NCBI GenBank assembly: GCA_951406725.2
Contig: OX597825.1
Span: 83,638,001-83,702,000, forward strand
DNA length: 64,000 nucleotides
Reading direction: 5' to 3'
Origin: Octopus vulgaris
Lineage: Eukaryota
The notes beneath the pieces were generated by a model. That model saw nothing but the letters and a program-made list of their open reading frames with translations. It did not search any database and was not told where the DNA came from. The position numbers and the translations under genes are program-made. Of the stretch, positions 1-62,199 are shown one piece after another (the first letter of the stretch is position 1; the number at the start of each line of letters is the position of its first letter).

Positions 1-546
1 TCCCCACTTTGGGTGCGCATGTTAGGAAGCTTGTTAGGAAGCAAGATACTTAATACACTGTTCCATTTCTACCTATATTATTCCCTTTCTATTTTGTTGT
101 TAATTGCCACAACTATCTTCAAAGGAATTCCAGCAAATATCATTGTCTTTCTTTTATGGTAATGGTATAGTTAGGTTGTGTCTCACCCGGGATAGCCCTT
201 CGACTTGCTGGCCTGTTCAGGACACTAAGCCTACACAGGTATACACAGCAGACCCAAAAGGGGGCTCCCATAAAAACGTCATTTGGGTTAAAACATCGCT
301 TCTCCCCTAGCACCGTTATATATATATATATATATAAATATATAAATAGATGAGTGCATTTTTACCTTGTTAACAGTTAACACGGAAAAAATAAATAAAT
401 AGTTACCAGGGTAGCAAAATTCTCACAAGTAAAGATGTTGTAACTCCTTGTTTATAAAGGTAGAAACGTCGTGTTTACGTGAAATATTTTCAATAATATA
501 TGAATAATTAAATGGAGTTTAACGCAGGTGTAAATCAAATATTTTT

Positions 547-632
547 ACTTTCGACACATGTTTCGAAAATTCCACTGATACTATTCAAAAGAATAAATGG
601 TATAAACAATGCAATCTTCTCTTCAGGAAAGT
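547..632 (-). ncRNA. Type I hammerhead ribozyme motif (inverted copy of 730-815)
   Basis: Reverse complement reads ACTTTC-CTGAAGA...GAAA-CATGTG-TC-GAAAGT. Confidence 0.75.
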
Positions 633-729
633 GAAAAAAACGGAATTAATATTAATAGCGTTCTGTCAATCGCTATACAAATCCATCATTTTTTGCTAAA
701 ATATCTTATTGACGAGTTTCGGTTTTATC

Positions 730-815
730 ACTTTCCTGAAGAGAAGATTGCATTGTTTATACCATTCATTCTTTTGAATAGTATCAGTGGAATTTTCGAA
801 ACATGTGTCGAAAGT
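730..815 (+). ncRNA. Type I hammerhead ribozyme motif
   Basis: ACTTTC-CTGAAGA-(stem II GAAGATT.CATTG...CAGTG.AATTTTC)-GAAA-CATGTG-TC-GAAAGT; stem I ACTTTC/GAAAGT is perfect; predicted cleavage after C809. Confidence 0.75.
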
Positions 816-876
816 AAAAATATTTGATTTACACCTGCGTTAAACTCCATTTATTTATTCATATATACATAAATAA

Positions 877-915
<39 letters not shown>

Positions 916-1578
916 TGTATGCATGTTTGTATGTAGTCATGTATGTATATATATGTGTGTGTGTTTTTTGTCCTATGGCTAAGCAACATCAGCAAGGAAG
1001 GACACATTAGATGACATAGTCCAAGATACACTATCCCTGAATAAATCACAAGGTAGTTACAATCGAAGCACGTTTCATCGTAGGTCAGTCGTGGCACAGT
1101 AAATCTAGGACTATATTTTCCAATGTATTATATTGCTATGTAATATACTAGTTCGTGACTACTATATACAATGCAGTTAGTTGATTCACAACACGTACGA
1201 ACCCACAAAAATGCAAAGGATATCGGCCCAAACAAACATAACTCCGCAAATGCAATGAATACTCGCCCCCGCAAATGCAAACCATGCAAAGGCAATTCCC
1301 ACACACATACAAAAGCGCAACCAATACAGGCCCTAACAAATGCTACACCTACACATCCATTCATACATACGTCATTTATACAAAATTACTAAGTTGAAGG
1401 AAAATCACTCCAACTCGGTCGAAAGCCCCATACAACCACGCTAAGATGGCGCCTAAATATATTTATATCCTCTAAGTGGAATCTTCCAATTCTCAAGTAT
1501 TTATCTTCCGAAGATTTCCGGCCTTGATGAAATATTTTGGTCTCGCTGCGTAAGGAACCATACAATACCGGCAATAGT

Positions 1579-1652
<74 letters not shown>

Positions 1653-1743
1653 GCACGCAACCATAGACATCGCATCTAGATATATATTTCACAAACATAT
1701 ATAGTTACAAACATGTATATTCAGAGATACATTTATGTATATA

Positions 1744-1808
<65 letters not shown>

Positions 1809-1934
1809 TATATACACATATATATATATATATACATATATATACACACACACACATATATGTATATGTATCCACAAAAACGTACTTTTGACTTCGCTTT
1901 TACATTTGCAGAAATCGATAGCCAGGTAAAATAT

Positions 1935-1968
<34 letters not shown>

Positions 1969-2460
1969 CTATACATGTACGTATGTACGTATATATATAT
2001 ATATGTCTGTGTGTGTGTGTGTGTGTGTGTGTGAGTGTGCGTGTTTTTGTGTATATATATGCATTTATTTACACATGTATGTATATGGGTATATAAGCAT
2101 GTATGTATATGTCTATGTATGTATGTGTGTTTGTGTACCAATTAATAATGTACCTAGTTATCGATTTATTCAACTGTTGTGTATATTTATCAAGGCATTT
2201 TTTCCCCTTACAATAATAAATATAGGCAAATACAAGTGTATACGTGTGTGCATGCGTGTATATGTGTATGTTTGTCTACATAGCACTATATTAATACTTT
2301 ATCTATGGAAAGAACTCATTATTTTGATTCCACCATTTGGTTTGGCGGGTTGAATAGCGTTGCCAAACTAGTGTTCTCGATTACGTCTCACAGCGATTCA
2401 ATACATATTATTCTCGCGGCGGCTTTATCAGCACACGCATTGACAGAGTATATACACATG

Positions 2461-2511
<51 letters not shown>

Positions 2512-2537
2512 TGCGTGTGTGCGTCTCTGTGTCGGTG

Positions 2538-2634
<97 letters not shown>

Positions 2635-2720
2635 GTATATATGTATATATGTATATATATATATATGTTTATGTGTGTGTTTGTGTGTGTATATATATAT
2701 ATATATATACACACACAGAG

Positions 2721-2787
<67 letters not shown>

Positions 2788-3253
2788 CGTGAGGTTCTAC
2801 GCTGACTCCTCTGATTTTACTCCAGCTATCGATCCAGACAACGAGTGATACTTAATGTAAATGTAAATGTTTGCTGATAGGGAAAGGGAAACATAATTGT
2901 GGAAAATGCGACAGATCTATATAAAGATTATCATGCAGGTTTATAGTAATGCTTTTCAGTATGAGAGTTTGAAGGGTTGAGGCGGGGGTGTCGAGAGAAA
3001 ATCAGTCCATTAGCGTTGAATTAAGAAGTGAAAACATTCCTTGCCATTAAAAAGGTTTACGTGTCATTTTTTCATGTAAATTTTTATCTCGAAAAACTAT
3101 TTCCGAATAAAAATAAAGACACATTTTAGAAATTTAGATATATTATAGCTAGTGTTGAATATTCTCTGTAATGAATATACACTAAAGCACCGTTGATTTT
3201 TAAATGAAAATAGAAAGCAGAAAATGCGACTGATATATCCAAAATACATATGC

Positions 3254-7599: not shown

Positions 7600-8055
7600 A
7601 GGGGGGGGGGGGGTCATCAAAGGTTTCCCCTGACCCATTTTCGGTTATTGTAGGAAGCGGAACTTGTACAGGTGTAATCATACATGTCTCTACATGTCAC
7701 ATTTTAAATAGCAGCTTTCCACTAGTATTTGTTTGTCTTTTACGGCTGCTGAAGTGGACTAAAGTGTTTATAATGGAGACAGTTGAATGCAGATCAGTGA
7801 TCAGGTTCTTATACTTGAAAGGTCGTACACCAAAAGAGACTTTCGATGAGATGAAAGAAGTTTATGGTGACGATGCACCATCATACGACGTAGTCAAGCA
7901 ATGGCATCGCCAGTTCAGATGTGGTGGATATCGGTGGAAACTGGACCACCACTTTCCACCATTGATGATGACACTATCCATAAAGTGGAATCCGCCATTG
8001 TGGAGGATCGTCACATAACTTTTCGGCAACAAAGTAACTGCAGAGTCCGTGAAAA
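7600..8055 (+). mobile_element. Mariner transposon 5' remnant (N-terminal HTH of transposase, frameshifted)
   Basis: ORF 7764-8018 RSVIRFLYLKGRTPKETFDEMKEVYGDDAPSYDVVKQWHRQF, then IHKVESAIVEDRHITFRQ in another frame. Confidence 0.85.
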
Positions 8056-10836: not shown

Positions 10837-11359
10837 GGAGTAAAGGAAATTACAATTTTTGTACGCAAAGTAATATTTATGATGAGAAAATAGAAGTAAA
10901 TAATAATCGGTTTCTGAAAGAATTATGGTGTGGGAATTTAAACATAAGGTGAAGTAATTACTAAGTCAGTTTGAATGGGGTGGGGAGAGGAGGGAATGTC
11001 AAACATCTTACCAACTTTTAAAGATAGGTAACTTTTCTATAGATAATATATAAGAAATAAATTGCTATATATGGTGAATATTGTTGTCGTTGATGTTTTA
11101 ACCCCACCAAGCATGTTTAATTCACGTGAAGCAGACATATGATCAAAGATATTCCATTTGTGACCGTCTCGTCAATTGAGAGTATTTTTGCAACAAGTGG
11201 GTCGAATGCATAGAAGGACCGAAGGTAAGAGAAACCATATAATAAAAGCACAAACAAACGGAAAATAGACACAGAAGACACCCAACTCCCCATCAGTTAT
11301 CAGCGTGAAGGTCAAACGCAATTTCGCATCTTTAACGATGATATTGGTCCCTTCTATAA

Positions 11360-11500
11360 ATATAAGTAAATAAACAGAGTCGAACGCAGATGCTATTCAA
11401 ATTCTTTTACATTTGACATATGTTTCGAAGACAACATTGGTTTTATTCCAACATATGTTTTATTCGAAACGTATGTCGAAGCTATTTATTCACTTATATA
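11360..11500. mobile_element. Internally deleted relative of the 497-865 inverted-repeat element
   Basis: AACGCAGATGCTATTCAAATTCTTTTACATTTGACATATGTTTCGAA aligns to 520-566; right remnant TTCGAAACGTATGTCGAA. Confidence 0.65.
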
Positions 11501-12589
11501 TATATATATCACTTAGACATTGCGATACTAAAGACTTAATGTAGAATCAATATAGATGTACCCAGGGACCAAACGTTGGTCGAGTATAGACAGGTAGTAA
11601 GAAATTACGGTGGTAAAGGAATAAACAATTATGTAATCAAATTCATTGGCCCACAGGTCTTTCTGCAATACGATGCTGTGAGCCTATATTTGAGTACATG
11701 AGTATTAAATCATAGCTTCATCGGGCCTTCAAATATAAAATGCAATTCACTTGCGAAAGCATTTCCATTGAGGCACTTCACGACTGAAGCGCATATGAAG
11801 CTATAAAGTGATAATAAGGCACACAACCCTGTGTTCGCCGCATCTTATTGCGGAAACACATGTGAGCCAATGTAGTTCACGAATTAAACTTTATTTATTT
11901 TTAACGCCAGTATATTTTATGTACGTATGTGTGTGCGCGTTCATGCATGTGTGTGTATCTGTGTGTGTGTGTCTTGCATTGAGTTCATTACTGTAACTCA
12001 CCCTACTCTGTTGTTGTGTAACTTAAAAGTCATTGGATAACTTACTGGAGAACATGAGAAAGCATTCTAGTTTGTAATATGTCGACGATATATTTGGACC
12101 AGTGACCAAATATAACCGAATATATAAATAAAGATTCCTCCTCTTAGGAATTCGGACAAAAATTTCCATGTGTCTTGGGAACTATTTCATCTGCACAACT
12201 TAAACAGCAAAAATTATTACAAAATATTACTCAGCAATGTCATCTGGAAAATTTCCAGAAATAATTATTTCTGTCAAAATTAGGAATATAAATGAAGACA
12301 AAACGAAAGAAAACAAAGCCTCTTGGAAGCAAGAAACAGACACAAACATCGTCTTTCTTGAAGATCCTAATTTATGCGTCCATTTTAACATTAGTAAAAA
12401 CAATACAAACAACATCATCACAAACTATTCCAAATTTGATTTGTGTGTGAGCGTGTGCGTCTGTGTGCATTTGTGTGTATGTATTTATGTATGTATCGAT
12501 GTATGTATGTGTATATATGTGTATATGTATATGTAATGTAATAAGAGATAAACATGTGATCTCTTGAGCAACACCAGCAAAAATATTTT

Positions 12590-29279: not shown

Positions 29280-29525
29280 TAATTATAACAAGAGATTGGC
29301 TATGAGCCCCACCACGCGCTGGAAAAATAGACGCCAAAAATAGACGCCAAAAATAGACGCTATTACAACCTTAAAATCCTCCGAGAATAAACGCACTCGG
29401 TTGTAGACGAACAAAACAACCCAGTGTGTTATTGTCGGAGATTTTAAGGTTGTAATAGCGTTTATTTTTGGCGTCTATTTTTCCAGCGCGTGGAGAGGCT
29501 TATAGCCAATCCCTTGTTATAATTA
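29280..29525. repeat. Foldback inverted repeat (arms of ~110-125 bp, short loop)
   Basis: TAATTATAACAAGAGATTGGCTAT...CCACGCGCTGGAAAAATAGACGCC mirrored on the right; a single arm end recurs at ~36457-36502. Confidence 0.85.
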
Positions 29526-29828
29526 TATCACCATAGCACCGATATTAGTTTTGATTGATACATTTCTCCATATTCTTCTTCCTCTCGCATTTAATTTAAA
29601 GCATCAATCGAAACATGTGTCGGTGGTATCGTGATACAAGTTATTTAAATAGCATCATGTGTGTTTGTGTCTATTTTCCATTACTCTTATGTTGTCCAAA
29701 ACAAGTCTCACTTCTCCTCGGAGTTATCACCCACGCAAGTATGATTACTAGCTTCTTAGGCGATTATGTGACATCTTAGCTACCTTGTAACTGTTTCTCT
29801 AGATCTTTCCTTATAAATTGAACACACA

Positions 29829-33271: not shown

Positions 33272-33325
33272 GTCCAGTACTGAAGAGAGGCAGAAATAGC
33301 CCGAAACCAGGCTGGTCTGCTGGAC
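33272..33325 (+). ncRNA. Canonical type I hammerhead ribozyme motif
   Basis: GTCCAGTA-CTGAAGA-G(A)GGC-agaaata-GCCC-GAAA-CCA-ggc-TGG-TC-TGCTGGAC: 8-bp stem I, 4-bp stem II, 4-bp stem III, GUC triplet. Confidence 0.85.
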
Positions 33326-34385
33326 CCGTTGCTCCAGGGTGATAGGGTTTCTCTCCCCCTACTCGCAGCATCTTGGATGCAGATGTGCATCGTTAACCAG
33401 CCAGAGGAGATGTCCTCTTGGGGTTAAAAAGTCGCAGTAAAATCCGTTCGAACGGGAAGCCATGTTGAAGTGGCTACGAATATTACTTATCAGTACAACT
33501 ACTGCGTTGATCTCTTACAGAGATTTTAGAACCGCTATTTTTAGTTATATATACATACATGCAGCTCTTTCCCAGGTTTCTCATTCCCTGTCACTCTCTA
33601 TTCATCTATCTATCAATCACATTCTATCTACTTATTTATTCATGAGCCTACGTATCACTCTCTAGATTACTTTATCTATATTTCTCTCACTCTACCCCAT
33701 CCTCTCTCTCTTTCTCCTTCATTCTCTCTCTCTCTCATACCCTCTCTGTTCTCCAGACTACTCTCTCTTGATATCGCTCTGTATATATTTACCCCCAAAT
33801 ATATCCCTTGAATCAAATTGGCTGCGATTTTTCGCTATAAACATTCTTGTCTTTTTGATGTATTTAATATTTTTTCTGCTTTATATTTTCTTTTCATTTT
33901 CTTCGTTTTTCGTTTCATTAATTTTTATAGACTGAGAAGAACAGATGATATATTGGATTGATAAATATATATGCATGTGGGTGCATGCGAACTCGCGGGC
34001 GCATGCGCATAAATGACTGCATTTGTTTTGTGTATATTTTTGCGTATGGGAGTATGTACAATTCTACATATATATGTGTGTGTGTGTATACACACACAGA
34101 GATATATGAAAATACATACATACATACACACATGCATACATACATACATATATACATATATACATACATACATACATTCATATATTGAATGACCGCTGCA
34201 TTAAGTGTATGAATTTGTGGGGGAAATATGTTGAATAAAATCATAATTAACTGATTCTGTATTTTCTTTTACTCAAATCCAGGAACTTTTCTGCATTTCC
34301 ACGTATGTGTGTGTGCGAATGCGTGTGCGTGTGCGAGCGCACGTGTGAGTGTAGAGAGAGAGAAAGAGAGAGAGAGAAAGAGAGC

Positions 34386-42085: not shown

Positions 42086-42611
42086 TACATTTTGATAGTT
42101 CTTTGGTGTATTAAAGAAAATCTGGAAAAACGTCTTGTGTCAGTAATGTAACTAAAGAGTGGAAAGCTGTGGGTTTTATTTAATTTGTTATGTAAGTGTG
42201 AGTGTGTAAAGGGAAACAAATAGGGGCAGTCCATCATAGAGAGTGGTAGTAAGAATGGAGAGCTGTGTATATAAATACATATACGTGCGATTCTTGTGGT
42301 GTTAAGTATGTTTCCCTATGTGGGAAATGGTGAGAAAAACATAGTGAGAAAAAGGAGAGTGGGAGAGTAACAGAGAGACAGAGATGGTGTGGGAATACGA
42401 GAGAAAAAGGAAAGCAGAAACACAGAGACCCTGTGGCAGAGAGCAAAGGAGAAGAAATACATACACACACGCGCTAACACACACACGTACACGCTCATAT
42501 ACATTGATCTATCTATCTATATGTACGTAAATATATATATATATATGTAGGTTGATAGATTGGTAGGTAGATAGATAAATAGATTTATTTATATATATAC
42601 ACACATTCATA

Positions 42612-42646
<35 letters not shown>

Positions 42647-42757
42647 GCATAGATAGATACATACATACATATAGATATACATGTACATAGATGTATGTTG
42701 TATATGCATGTATATATAGTTATGTATGTATCAATGCATTTATGTATGTATGTGTGC

Positions 42758-55657: not shown

Positions 55658-56990
55658 TTAAAAATGCGACCAGATGCACGAAATCTTATTCCGATTCCCA
55701 TACCAAAGCAATTCAGCAAAATAAAAAGGGAAAGTGTAGGGGGCAGGAATATCCCCCTGTTTGATACAGTTGTCCACCAAACATTCATGAGATAGCTCAT
55801 CATTAAGGACTACTAGAACTTTCATGTTTCTGTGTAGATCCTTAAAGATGCACACAAAATGTGTTGGGCAACCAAGTTTACACAAAATAATCCACAGTGC
55901 CTTCCTGCTTACCATGTCAAATACCTTAGTTAAATCTATGAAGATCTGGTATAGTGGCATTTGTTCCTCTAAGCATTTCTCTTGAACCTGCCTCGCAGAA
56001 AATATCAGGTCCATTTTTCCTCGCTCAGATTTGAAACCACACTGTTCTTCAGGAATCACATGTGGCCACACATTCTCAACGAGACGATCTAACATGATCC
56101 TTGAAAGTATCTTCCAGGTATATGCCAGAATTATATATTTGGCATATCCCTCTAGAATTACCACACACTGCTTTTGGGCCCTTACCATTGTATACAGAGA
56201 TTAGAATGGCATTTATCCATTCTTGTGGCGAAGAAGATTCATACCAAACTCAAGTTATCAGGTTATGCATTTCAGATGAAATATCATCCCCACTTACTTT
56301 CAGAATTTCACCTGGAATACCATCCATTCCAGTTTCACCTGATCTCAGTTTACATAATGCTAGATTTACTTCTTCAATGGAATGTGTATCCTTCATGTGT
56401 TGCACTATTTCTGTTTGGTATCCATGTTCACTAAACACGGAATGTGGAGAAGATCTGAAAATTGTTCTCTACATTTATTCATTATTCCAGGAGGATCTTT
56501 AATAACCTCATTTTCCTCTTTTGACTTCAGGGGAACATATGAGGAAGAGCGCGGTCCAAAAGCTTGCCGCAATAAACTATAGAAACTTTTAATGTCTTTT
56601 CTGTCATAGACTGCCTGTACTTTCTCAGACAAATTTGTCCACCGAATGTCTTTAAGCTTCCTGAGTTCTTTTTGCAAGTCTGCTTCCTGAGACTTGTACA
56701 ATTTTGTTTGTTCTTAACTTTGCATTTTGTTCTTAACGTTTGGGTGAAGAAGCTTTCCATGAGTGGATCTCTTTCATTTATCTCTGTGTTATTGTAATCA
56801 AACCAGTCTTGGTGCTGTCTTCTCTTAAAACCTAACACATCTGATCTCATTTTATATATTCCATCCCAGAAAAGTTGCCATAAACCATCAGAATATAATC
56901 TTTCTTCGGCCCCCTGACAAGGTTATAGATATTTTGAGTGATTGCATCAGATCGCACCCAGCTGAACACATCTGCGATGCTGCTAATGTT
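55658..56990 (-). mobile_element. RTE-clade LINE ORF fragment (linker + RT N-terminal domains), frameshifted pseudogene
   Basis: RQHQDWFD; GMDGIPGEILK; IPEEQCGFKSERGKMDLIFSARQVQEKCLEEQMPLYQIFIDLTKVFDMVSR...LCKLGCP; CIKQGDIPAP. Confidence 0.92.
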
Positions 56991-60649: not shown

Positions 60650-60728
60650 GAGTATAACTCCAAACTTACAGGGGAAAATTCAATTTAGTATTAATTCAAA
60701 TTTCACAGTATAACTATATTAAATATAA

Positions 60729-60964
60729 ATTAGAGATAAATCCATTATTATGCAACTCAAACTTTGATAGACATAAACCAATACATAAATAACAAATATA
60801 TATTTTTATAAAACATATAACTTATAACTAGATCTCAATATTTATATATAATATATTAATTAATTAATTAAGTTATATGTTTTATAAAAATATATATTTG
60901 TTATTTATGTATTGGTTTATGTCTATCAATGTTTGAGTTGCATAATAGTTGTTTTATCTATAAT
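60729..60964. repeat. AT-rich inverted repeat (arms 60729-60824 / 60869-60964)
   Basis: TATTATGCAACTCAAAC.TTGATAGACATAAACCAATACATAAATAACAAAT mirrored. Confidence 0.85.
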
Positions 60965-62199
60965 ATATATATTTTATATATATACGGGTTTCCAAAAAAC
61001 CGGCCAGCGTAAATTCTACAACCCTAAAACCCCCAAAAGCCATGTTATGCGACAAGTGCAGTAGGCTTACTTCGTCGCTATTGTCACTAGTCTATTTGGG
61101 ATTTATGAAGGTTGTTGTCAAACCACGCCGAGCAAATGAGTGGAGTGCAGAACTTATAAATTGTGTTCAAACCATTAGGTTATAAGTCGCGCTTTCCAGT
61201 GACTGCATATATAGGTGTGAAAAGAGGGCAAGATGGAGACAGTTGTCTGCGATATACTGCGACACGCTACGGTTTTATAGATGAGTAGTTATCTCCCTGT
61301 ATGTATGTATGCATATATTTGTCGGATATTGTTAACAGAACGTGGCAGATACAGTGGGAAGACACAATGGTATCCTTCCATCTGAGGGATACCATTGCTT
61401 GGATAGTAGTCTAGTTGGTCGTTACTTGTAGACGCGAATCCGTTGCTAGCTGCGAAGAAGACATTCCATAGCCCGTCTTGTAAATTGTAGCTGTAATTCA
61501 AAAGATACAGCCTTGGCACGACCTGAAAATTTCGTTTCTGGTACACGTCTTAATGAATCGGTCAACCAATGAATTCATTTGATCGAACAGCTGAATCCTC
61601 GTCGACAAACGACGAAGAACCACCACCACCACCACCTAAACCTTGTTTGATATTCTATTGCTATTTTTGGTTTTTAGTATTTTTGTTTTCTTTTGTTGCG
61701 TAGTTGTAATTCGAACCAGGATCAGCTGTGAACTAGCAGAGGAGTTTCCTACTCGAAGATATAAGAGCCATTAGCAAGGCATACGTTGTAGAATATGTCC
61801 TTCTTTGGGACGTAATTTGAGGTCGGTCTGGCTACTATGTGTAACAGCTCCTGTGAACTCTTGGCAGTCCTCCAATCAATATAGATTTCCTTATTTGTGC
61901 TTGCGTTGTTTTGCCCGCAGTTTCACCCTGGTGGGACTAACTTGTCACTAAAACGGTAGAGCAGATTCACGGCTGACGTTTTTGTCACATGTGACCATTC
62001 TACATTTATGCTTACATTGCACTATACTTCTCAATATCTTGCTTCTATGATGACACAGGGAATATGAAGGGAATTTGGCTGCCATTTTGAACAGGTAACA
62101 TCACCGCGTAAATTTCCTCTCATTGGCTCAACTGTACCGATGCCGGTTTTACTGTTGATTTTTGTTGTTTTTATCCGGCTGCTGTTGTTTTTGGCTTTC

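Follow-up and report, generated by a model that had tools for sequence, protein, structure and literature searches.

Two opposed hammerhead motifs in Octopus vulgaris DNA: a probable truncated, inverted Penelope-type insertion

Penelope-like elements, retrozymes and their hammerheads

EN+ Penelope-like elements (PLEs) carry a single ORF that encodes a telomerase-related reverse transcriptase (RT) and a GIY-YIG endonuclease, and they have direct pLTRs in full or partial tandem and a pLTR intron. Non-LTR retrozymes are known as circular RNA monomers, and MITEs and foldback DNA transposons have long inverted arms around a short centre and lie beside TA repeats.

Metazoan pLTRs have been described as holding type I hammerheads with a small palindromic helix III (Cervera and De la Pena 2014, PMC4209133). 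The same source reports paired minimal hammerheads (min-HHRs) 100-700 bp apart on opposite strands in Penelope-like elements, as well as a truncated PLE with a second, opposite-strand motif at its 5' end. The typical PLE insertion, in the account of Craig et al. (PMC8557442), favours (TA)n and has a tail on one side as well as a 5'-truncated copy in inverted orientation; how PLEs form inverted copies is listed there as unresolved. Rotifer PLEs occur as head-to-head repeats with palindromes at their junctions, which were read as the outcome of self-priming, and pLTRs are reported to be all that is needed in cis when mobilisation occurs in trans (PMC3846280). In experiments with a purified PLE protein, both strands were cut and extended at AT-rich sites; the protein, a predicted dimer, initiated internally at two sites. 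The same report found that the PLE hammerhead depends on the protein and that insertion in vitro does not require the hammerhead (PMC11167929). Dimeric PLE hammerheads have been described by Lunse et al. (via PMC6765202). Animal non-LTR retrozymes consist of monomers of ~300 bp, each with its own hammerhead, repeated head to tail (PMC7229834; 10.64898/2026.07.22.740005), and have been argued to be non-autonomous PLE derivatives (10.64898/2026.07.22.740005).

The locus described here lies in a window of 64,000 nucleotides of Octopus vulgaris DNA, the whole stretch that was analysed. It matches the published head-to-head PLE insertions as these sources describe them, including those with paired opposite-strand hammerheads (PMC4209133), a likeness that suggests membership of this group. 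It is probably an ordinary example of a truncated, inverted Penelope-type insertion, in which two 5'-truncated copies of a repeat family lie head to head between (TA)n runs; the pair is likely to be the by-product of a single insertion event that was a dead end.

Anatomy of the locus and of its repeat family

A repeat search at the locus identified two inverted arms of 150 nt each, at 496-645 (minus) and 717-866 (plus), which are 97% complementary, are separated by a gap of 71 nt and differ at five positions (719/643, 722/640, 727/635, 767/595 and 854/508). The inverted arms of ~149 bp described in an earlier note on this DNA were therefore recovered at essentially that length, but the extent of 497-865 given there for a single element did not stand, since 346-495 belongs to a left copy and the spacer between the arms to a right copy of one repeat family. 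As defined by contig cover and loose ends, the left copy occupies 346-645 on the minus strand and is 5'-truncated at ~645, and the right copy occupies 648-866 on the plus strand and is 5'-truncated at 648. The left copy alone has a tail-like 3' extension (346-495, minus), while 648-716 (plus) is family sequence upstream of the hammerhead in the right copy. The left copy is thus longer than the right, and the 3' ends of the two copies are 150 nt apart. Letters 646-647 are part of neither copy. A perfect 12-bp palindrome, ATTAATATTAAT, lies at the head-to-head junction (645-656), as placed by the sequence and the family loose ends; it is weak evidence, since only two untemplated letters would be needed to make it. 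The left flank (317-345) is rich in (TA)n and the right flank (867-912) consists of (TAAA)n followed by (TA)n. Both are likely target site, and any target-site duplication is unreadable inside these microsatellites, with (TA)n on both sides. No direct, head-to-tail repeat was found in the repeat search at the locus. Near the family 3' end there is also an imperfect small hairpin (358-392, 30 of 35 nt), which could be a protein-binding or priming signal.

This two-copy reading comes from public sequence data. Among 24 runs listed, 20 contain part of 346-860, under five organism labels, and none contains half of it or more. Contigs of four of the public runs (X1, X4, X5 and X13) were aligned on 346-760 at 85% likeness, where the recommended cut-off is 95%. 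The whole of 346-760 proved to be one very abundant repeat, with every part of it represented by contigs, which numbered 1,408-2,703 in each DNA-scale run. Summed depth reached ~600,000, against 9-90 for contigs of single junctions, a rough contrast that is not a copy number. Deep contig cover extends over 346-639 in all four runs and also over 654-737, and depth falls at the window's junction. In X1 the bin 640-653 has a depth of 4,540 between neighbours of 169,730 and 35,980, and weaker dips are seen in X4, X5 and X13. Loose ends at 639/642 (X1, X4 and X13) lead into the reverse complement of the spacer. Those at 648 (X1 and X13) lead upstream into family sequence that is absent from the window and that, in an X13 loose end, extends over at least 63 letters, of which 30 were seen. 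The spacer is therefore the family's own upstream sequence, and the locus is the sum of the left and right copies. The sense strand of the family reads from the upstream part through 648-716 and the arm to the reverse complement of 495-346, and then into TA repeats.

The upstream motif of the family had no match in the 64-kb window, and a family-specific 22-nt pattern had none in prokaryote genomes or in viral contigs. No RNA run was listed among those that contain the sequence. The substitution spectrum in X13, which is guessed to be an RNA run, was the same as in the DNA runs, and contigs are blind to editing, strand and level. We did not find the family described in the literature, but it may already be catalogued in a repeat library such as Repbase or Dfam. 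The two copies at the locus differ from the family majority at similar proportions of sites, ~2.3-2.7% (left 7/300, right 3/113), which fits co-insertion followed by neutral decay and speaks against a fold-back artefact.

The window's own junction was spanned by none of the 32 pieces listed out of 6,341. Other junctions of the family were found, and all 14 joints listed have breakpoints distinct from that of the window. Eight of them are head to head as given, with an antisense 3' piece joined to a sense copy, and three of the six strand-switch joints can be added, since the alternative would cross the window's private junction; the remaining three have no stated direction, leaving 11 of 14 assignable as head to head. 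Two whole hammerheads are present in none of the 14 and one in nine, and none of those listed is a head-to-tail joint at the 3' end. These joints were called at 85% likeness, and some are flagged as less reliable: seven have one side shorter than 30 letters and six have unknown letters between the sides. The joint between 371 and 648 bears upstream letters of the family that are missing from the window, and must therefore be of independent origin. In three of the four runs, other head-to-head junctions of the family occur at single-copy depth. An older head-to-head relic of the family, at 77-78% identity, lies in the window itself at 11308-11506 on both strands, with a long arm on the minus strand (~11451-11308) and a short arm on the plus strand (from 11463). 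In family coordinates the short arm stops, in (TA)n, close to the position that corresponds to 866, so that the window has two cases of such an end. Both relic arms keep the GAAA...GTC half of the hammerhead, with helix III variants, and lack the CTGANGA half.

This anatomy is in agreement with published insertions of EN+ PLEs (Penelope/Poseidon, Neptune, Nematis and Hydra), which, like the locus, have a head-to-head inverted 5'-truncated copy, a junction palindrome and a hammerhead near the 3' end (PMC8557442; PMC3846280), and which likewise are described with an extension at one end and (TA)n flanks without a readable target-site duplication. Of the reading in the earlier note, the Penelope-type type I hammerhead with its short self-complementary helix III, the inverted copy and the (TA)n flanks are supported. 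The locus differs in that its extension is 150 nt, against the tail of 30-40 bp described, and in that no ORF sequence remains between its copies.

The linked PLE RT/GIY-YIG ORF that the earlier note had proposed to look for was found neither in the window frames searched nor in the frame 648-824, and no such ORF was tied to the family. A Pfam search of the window that covered 122 of 231 complexity-filtered frames detected no PLE-type domain, and the only matches above the curated cut-offs in the frames searched were an RVT_1 relic and a mariner HTH. These two are observations in their own right: a reverse-transcriptase relic (PF00078) at 55661-56200 on the minus strand and a mariner transposase HTH relic (PF17906) at 7602-8015 on the plus strand. 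The plus-strand frame 648-824 is open for 59 codons, through the right hammerhead. None of 42 candidates in a comparison of this frame with longer proteins was credible as a homologue, and the frame was rejected as an ORF link after a full HMMER search that returned one tandem-repeat protein only, at 25% identity and E 6e-4. With no RT/GIY-YIG ORF linked to the family, we infer its Penelope-like membership rather than regard it as demonstrated.

The hammerhead motifs and the folding of read-through RNA

Each arm contains a type I hammerhead motif with a complete core, exactly where the earlier note had placed one on each strand. In the left motif (547-632, minus) CTGAAGA is at 626-620 and GAAA at 564-561, with predicted cleavage after C553; in the right motif (730-815, plus) they are at 736-742 and 798-801, with predicted cleavage after C809. 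Both motifs have a 6-bp stem I (ACTTTC/GAAAGT), a GTC cleavage triplet and a 55-nt stem II domain closed by G10.1-C11.1, with 7 contiguous pairs and ~21 in total. Stem III is weak in both, at two pairs. A single difference among 86 nt separates the two motifs, and it lies in the distal part of stem II. The sequence and pairing features that define the type I hammerhead are all present, namely the core elements CUGANGA, GAAA and UH, stems I and II and G10.1-C11.1. A type I descriptor with a threshold of at least 5 pairs in each of stems I and II recovered three sites in the window, the two arm motifs and one at minus 19409, and none in any of 200 dinucleotide shuffles. As a control, a core-only pattern was run on viral and metagenome collections, where it gave 33 loci (3 in viral and 30 in metagenome contigs), none with both stems; these were discarded as chance occurrences, all 33 being without paired stems and without blastn likeness to the element. 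The hammerhead family was not among 89 Rfam matches at E up to 5 for window positions 1-3000, probably on account of the long stem II.

These motifs resemble the type I hammerheads of PLEs, as described in PMC4209133, in topology, full core, G10.1-C11.1 pair and a small self-complementary helix III fit for dimers, and also in their U-rich 5' and AU-rich 3' flanks and in the occurrence of two opposite-strand motifs, here ~110 nt apart. The hammerhead lies ~200 nt from the family 3' end and has a short palindromic helix III, as do the type I hammerheads that EN+ Penelope-like elements carry near the 3' end, in the pLTR. The motifs differ from those of PLEs in the length of stem II (55 nt, ~21 bp, against 6-8 bp), in lacking the extra nucleotide between 9 and 10.1, and in a stem I of 6 bp rather than 4-5.

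Helix III in the monomer has a predicted probability of only ~0.04, and is self-complementary over 8 nt for a dimer. The earlier note had described a weak stem III with a palindrome capable of dimerisation, and the self-complementarity was borne out, though not in the register proposed. In a dimer A15.1 must pair with U16.1, and the 6-nt ACAUGU leaves U16.1 unpaired; the working register is therefore the 8-nt ACAUGUGU, running from A15.1 to U16.1 with two G-U pairs, as judged from folded energies and from hammerhead numbering for the register. This sequence becomes a perfect 8-nt helix III palindrome in a variant of the family at 557 and in the relic copy at 11,42x. No core position varies at 5% or more (0/13), but against the background this is not significant (P = 0.40), and the hammerhead as a whole does not differ significantly from the sequence outside it (Fisher P = 1.0); the data do not demonstrate selection on the core. 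The six variants inside the hammerhead comprise two that keep a pair, one that perfects the helix III palindrome, one at a mismatch and two that break distal stem II pairs.

Several other motifs were noted in the window. The minus-strand site at 19415-19367 (core 19409) is a minimal type I hammerhead of another family, with a 5-bp stem I, an extra nucleotide after A9, a 6-bp stem II and almost no helix III. A type I hammerhead-like motif of unrelated sequence lies on the plus strand at 33272-33326 (core 33280), with a stem I of 8 bp, a short and bulged stem II and a stem III of 4-5 bp. At 29280-29525 there is a 246-bp inverted-repeat element that is MITE-like, and after it, at 29554-29627, a hammerhead half with GAAACATGTGTC as in the arms and stem II-like pairing, without CTGANGA. 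Further AT-rich fold-backs at 60708-60985 and 42507-42662 lie beside microsatellites or are built of them.

The head-to-head geometry means that read-through RNA in either direction makes the antisense arm first. RNA of 496-866 is predicted to fold at -230 kcal/mol, and forcing the active hammerhead would cost 116 kcal/mol. Stem I was computed to be practically absent from this RNA (probability ~0), and at all five prefix lengths tested the sense motif had already been captured. Read-through RNA is thus predicted to be a locked 150-bp hairpin in which the ribozyme would be dead and switching would not occur. This is at odds with the switch between dsRNA and a self-cleaving form suggested in the earlier note, since the antisense arm comes first and the active fold is so costly. 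Transcription from a start within the spacer would leave out the antisense arm; stem I is nonetheless predicted to be rare there too (0.004), which agrees with the reports of low activity and dependence on helpers for Penelope-type hammerheads.

Origin of the head-to-head pair

The locus has two copies with differing 5' and 3' ends and a junction palindrome, and the family has variable junctions elsewhere. For an insertion of Penelope type, the RT/GIY-YIG protein of the element would cut an AT-rich target and prime cDNA on both strands, with one start at the 3' end of the family (346) and the other at an AUAUAU run in its interior (861-866), each aided by a short match to the (TA)n end. Both cDNAs would then stop early and be joined via a short fold-back at the palindrome 645-656. 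The proposed two-strand, internal priming is modelled on the behaviour published for the PLE protein (PMC11167929). Self-priming and two-strand priming are not separable by these data. That both arms keep a whole ribozyme is due solely to where the two cDNAs ended, just upstream of the hammerhead in each case, and the presence of two complete ribozymes at this locus is an accident of the copy stop points. In the parent element, by analogy with described PLE hammerheads, the hammerhead would be likely to cleave tandem transcripts as a dimer through the 8-bp intermolecular helix III, perhaps with help from protein.

A family without an ORF of its own would differ from this account only in the identity of the parent, the head-to-head pair being formed in the same way. 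The parent would then be a short hammerhead retroposon, either a solo-pLTR derivative or a dispersed non-LTR retrozyme, that is non-autonomous and is moved in trans by a Penelope-like protein. The very high abundance in contigs and the failure to find an ORF link would fit such a family, as would the argument that retrozymes are non-autonomous PLE derivatives (10.64898/2026.07.22.740005) and the sufficiency of pLTRs in cis for trans mobilisation (PMC3846280). The locus shares with non-LTR retrozymes, as these are described, a type I hammerhead, a weak helix III and a non-coding, AT-rich, high-copy repeat. Its copies, however, are inverted and truncated, and the head-to-tail repeat that characterises retrozymes was seen neither at the locus nor in the 14 listed joints, though a monomer longer than 346-760 would escape this comparison; at least 63 further letters of the family also lie upstream of 648 (X13). 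We regard an ORF-less parent as unlikely on this balance. More specifically, the parent might be a hammerhead retroposon that has escaped description, has no ORF and reaches very high copy numbers, with an unusually long stem II (55 nt) and two priming sites 150 nt apart. Such an element would ride on a Penelope-like protein and would have left hundreds of head-to-head junctions scattered in host genomes, a proposal that is speculative and rather doubtful.

The earlier note had suggested that the two arms may be a mobile unit, a non-autonomous foldback family with a transcript that could alternate between a dsRNA hairpin and self-cleavage. The arms are indeed 97% alike with both hammerheads complete, and eight 'skip' joints could in part be explained by internal deletion within a two-arm unit. 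Against this, family contigs depart from the junction on both sides (639/642 and 648), the 14 listed joints are all broken elsewhere and none holds two whole hammerheads, and the 371-648 joint is of independent origin. The insertion is moreover asymmetric, with 150 extra nt on the left, the differences between the arms are private decay on both sides, and in read-through RNA stem I is predicted at ~0 with the sense ribozyme captured at all five prefixes. Fixed inverted repeats and a centre common to the copies, as MITEs and foldback transposons have, were not found: the arms do not behave as terminal repeats of fixed extent, the centre belongs to the family itself, breakpoints vary by copy and there are loose ends on both sides of the junction. 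Such loose ends and variable breakpoints leave a fixed two-arm foldback unit unsupported, and we consider it very unlikely. An inversion after insertion, by replication fold-back or by repair between neighbouring copies, or a fold-back artefact of assembly or library preparation, seems just as improbable. AT-rich, microsatellite-flanked DNA is prone to fold-back and assembly errors, and the window's own junction is in no listed piece from the four runs. Yet 5 of 150 positions differ between the arms, and each side has changes of its own, a pattern that no chimeric read would produce. The spacer is present once and is asymmetric, and further head-to-head junctions of the family occur in three of the four runs and once more in the window. 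A truncated, inverted Penelope-type insertion is therefore the reading that we prefer.

As a single locus this insertion matters little, being one more example of a published insertion pattern. Its family, in contrast, is abundant, occurs under five organism labels and has many independent inverted junctions, possibly with two priming sites 150 nt apart. The escape of its long stem II variant from Rfam indicates that such motifs may be undercounted. If the parent were an ORF-less retroposon, the junctions would be a ready data set on self-priming versus two-strand priming in PLE insertion and, where they fall in transcripts, a genome-wide source of long dsRNA for ADAR. With the host genome, the junctions of the family could test how Penelope-like elements form inverted copies.
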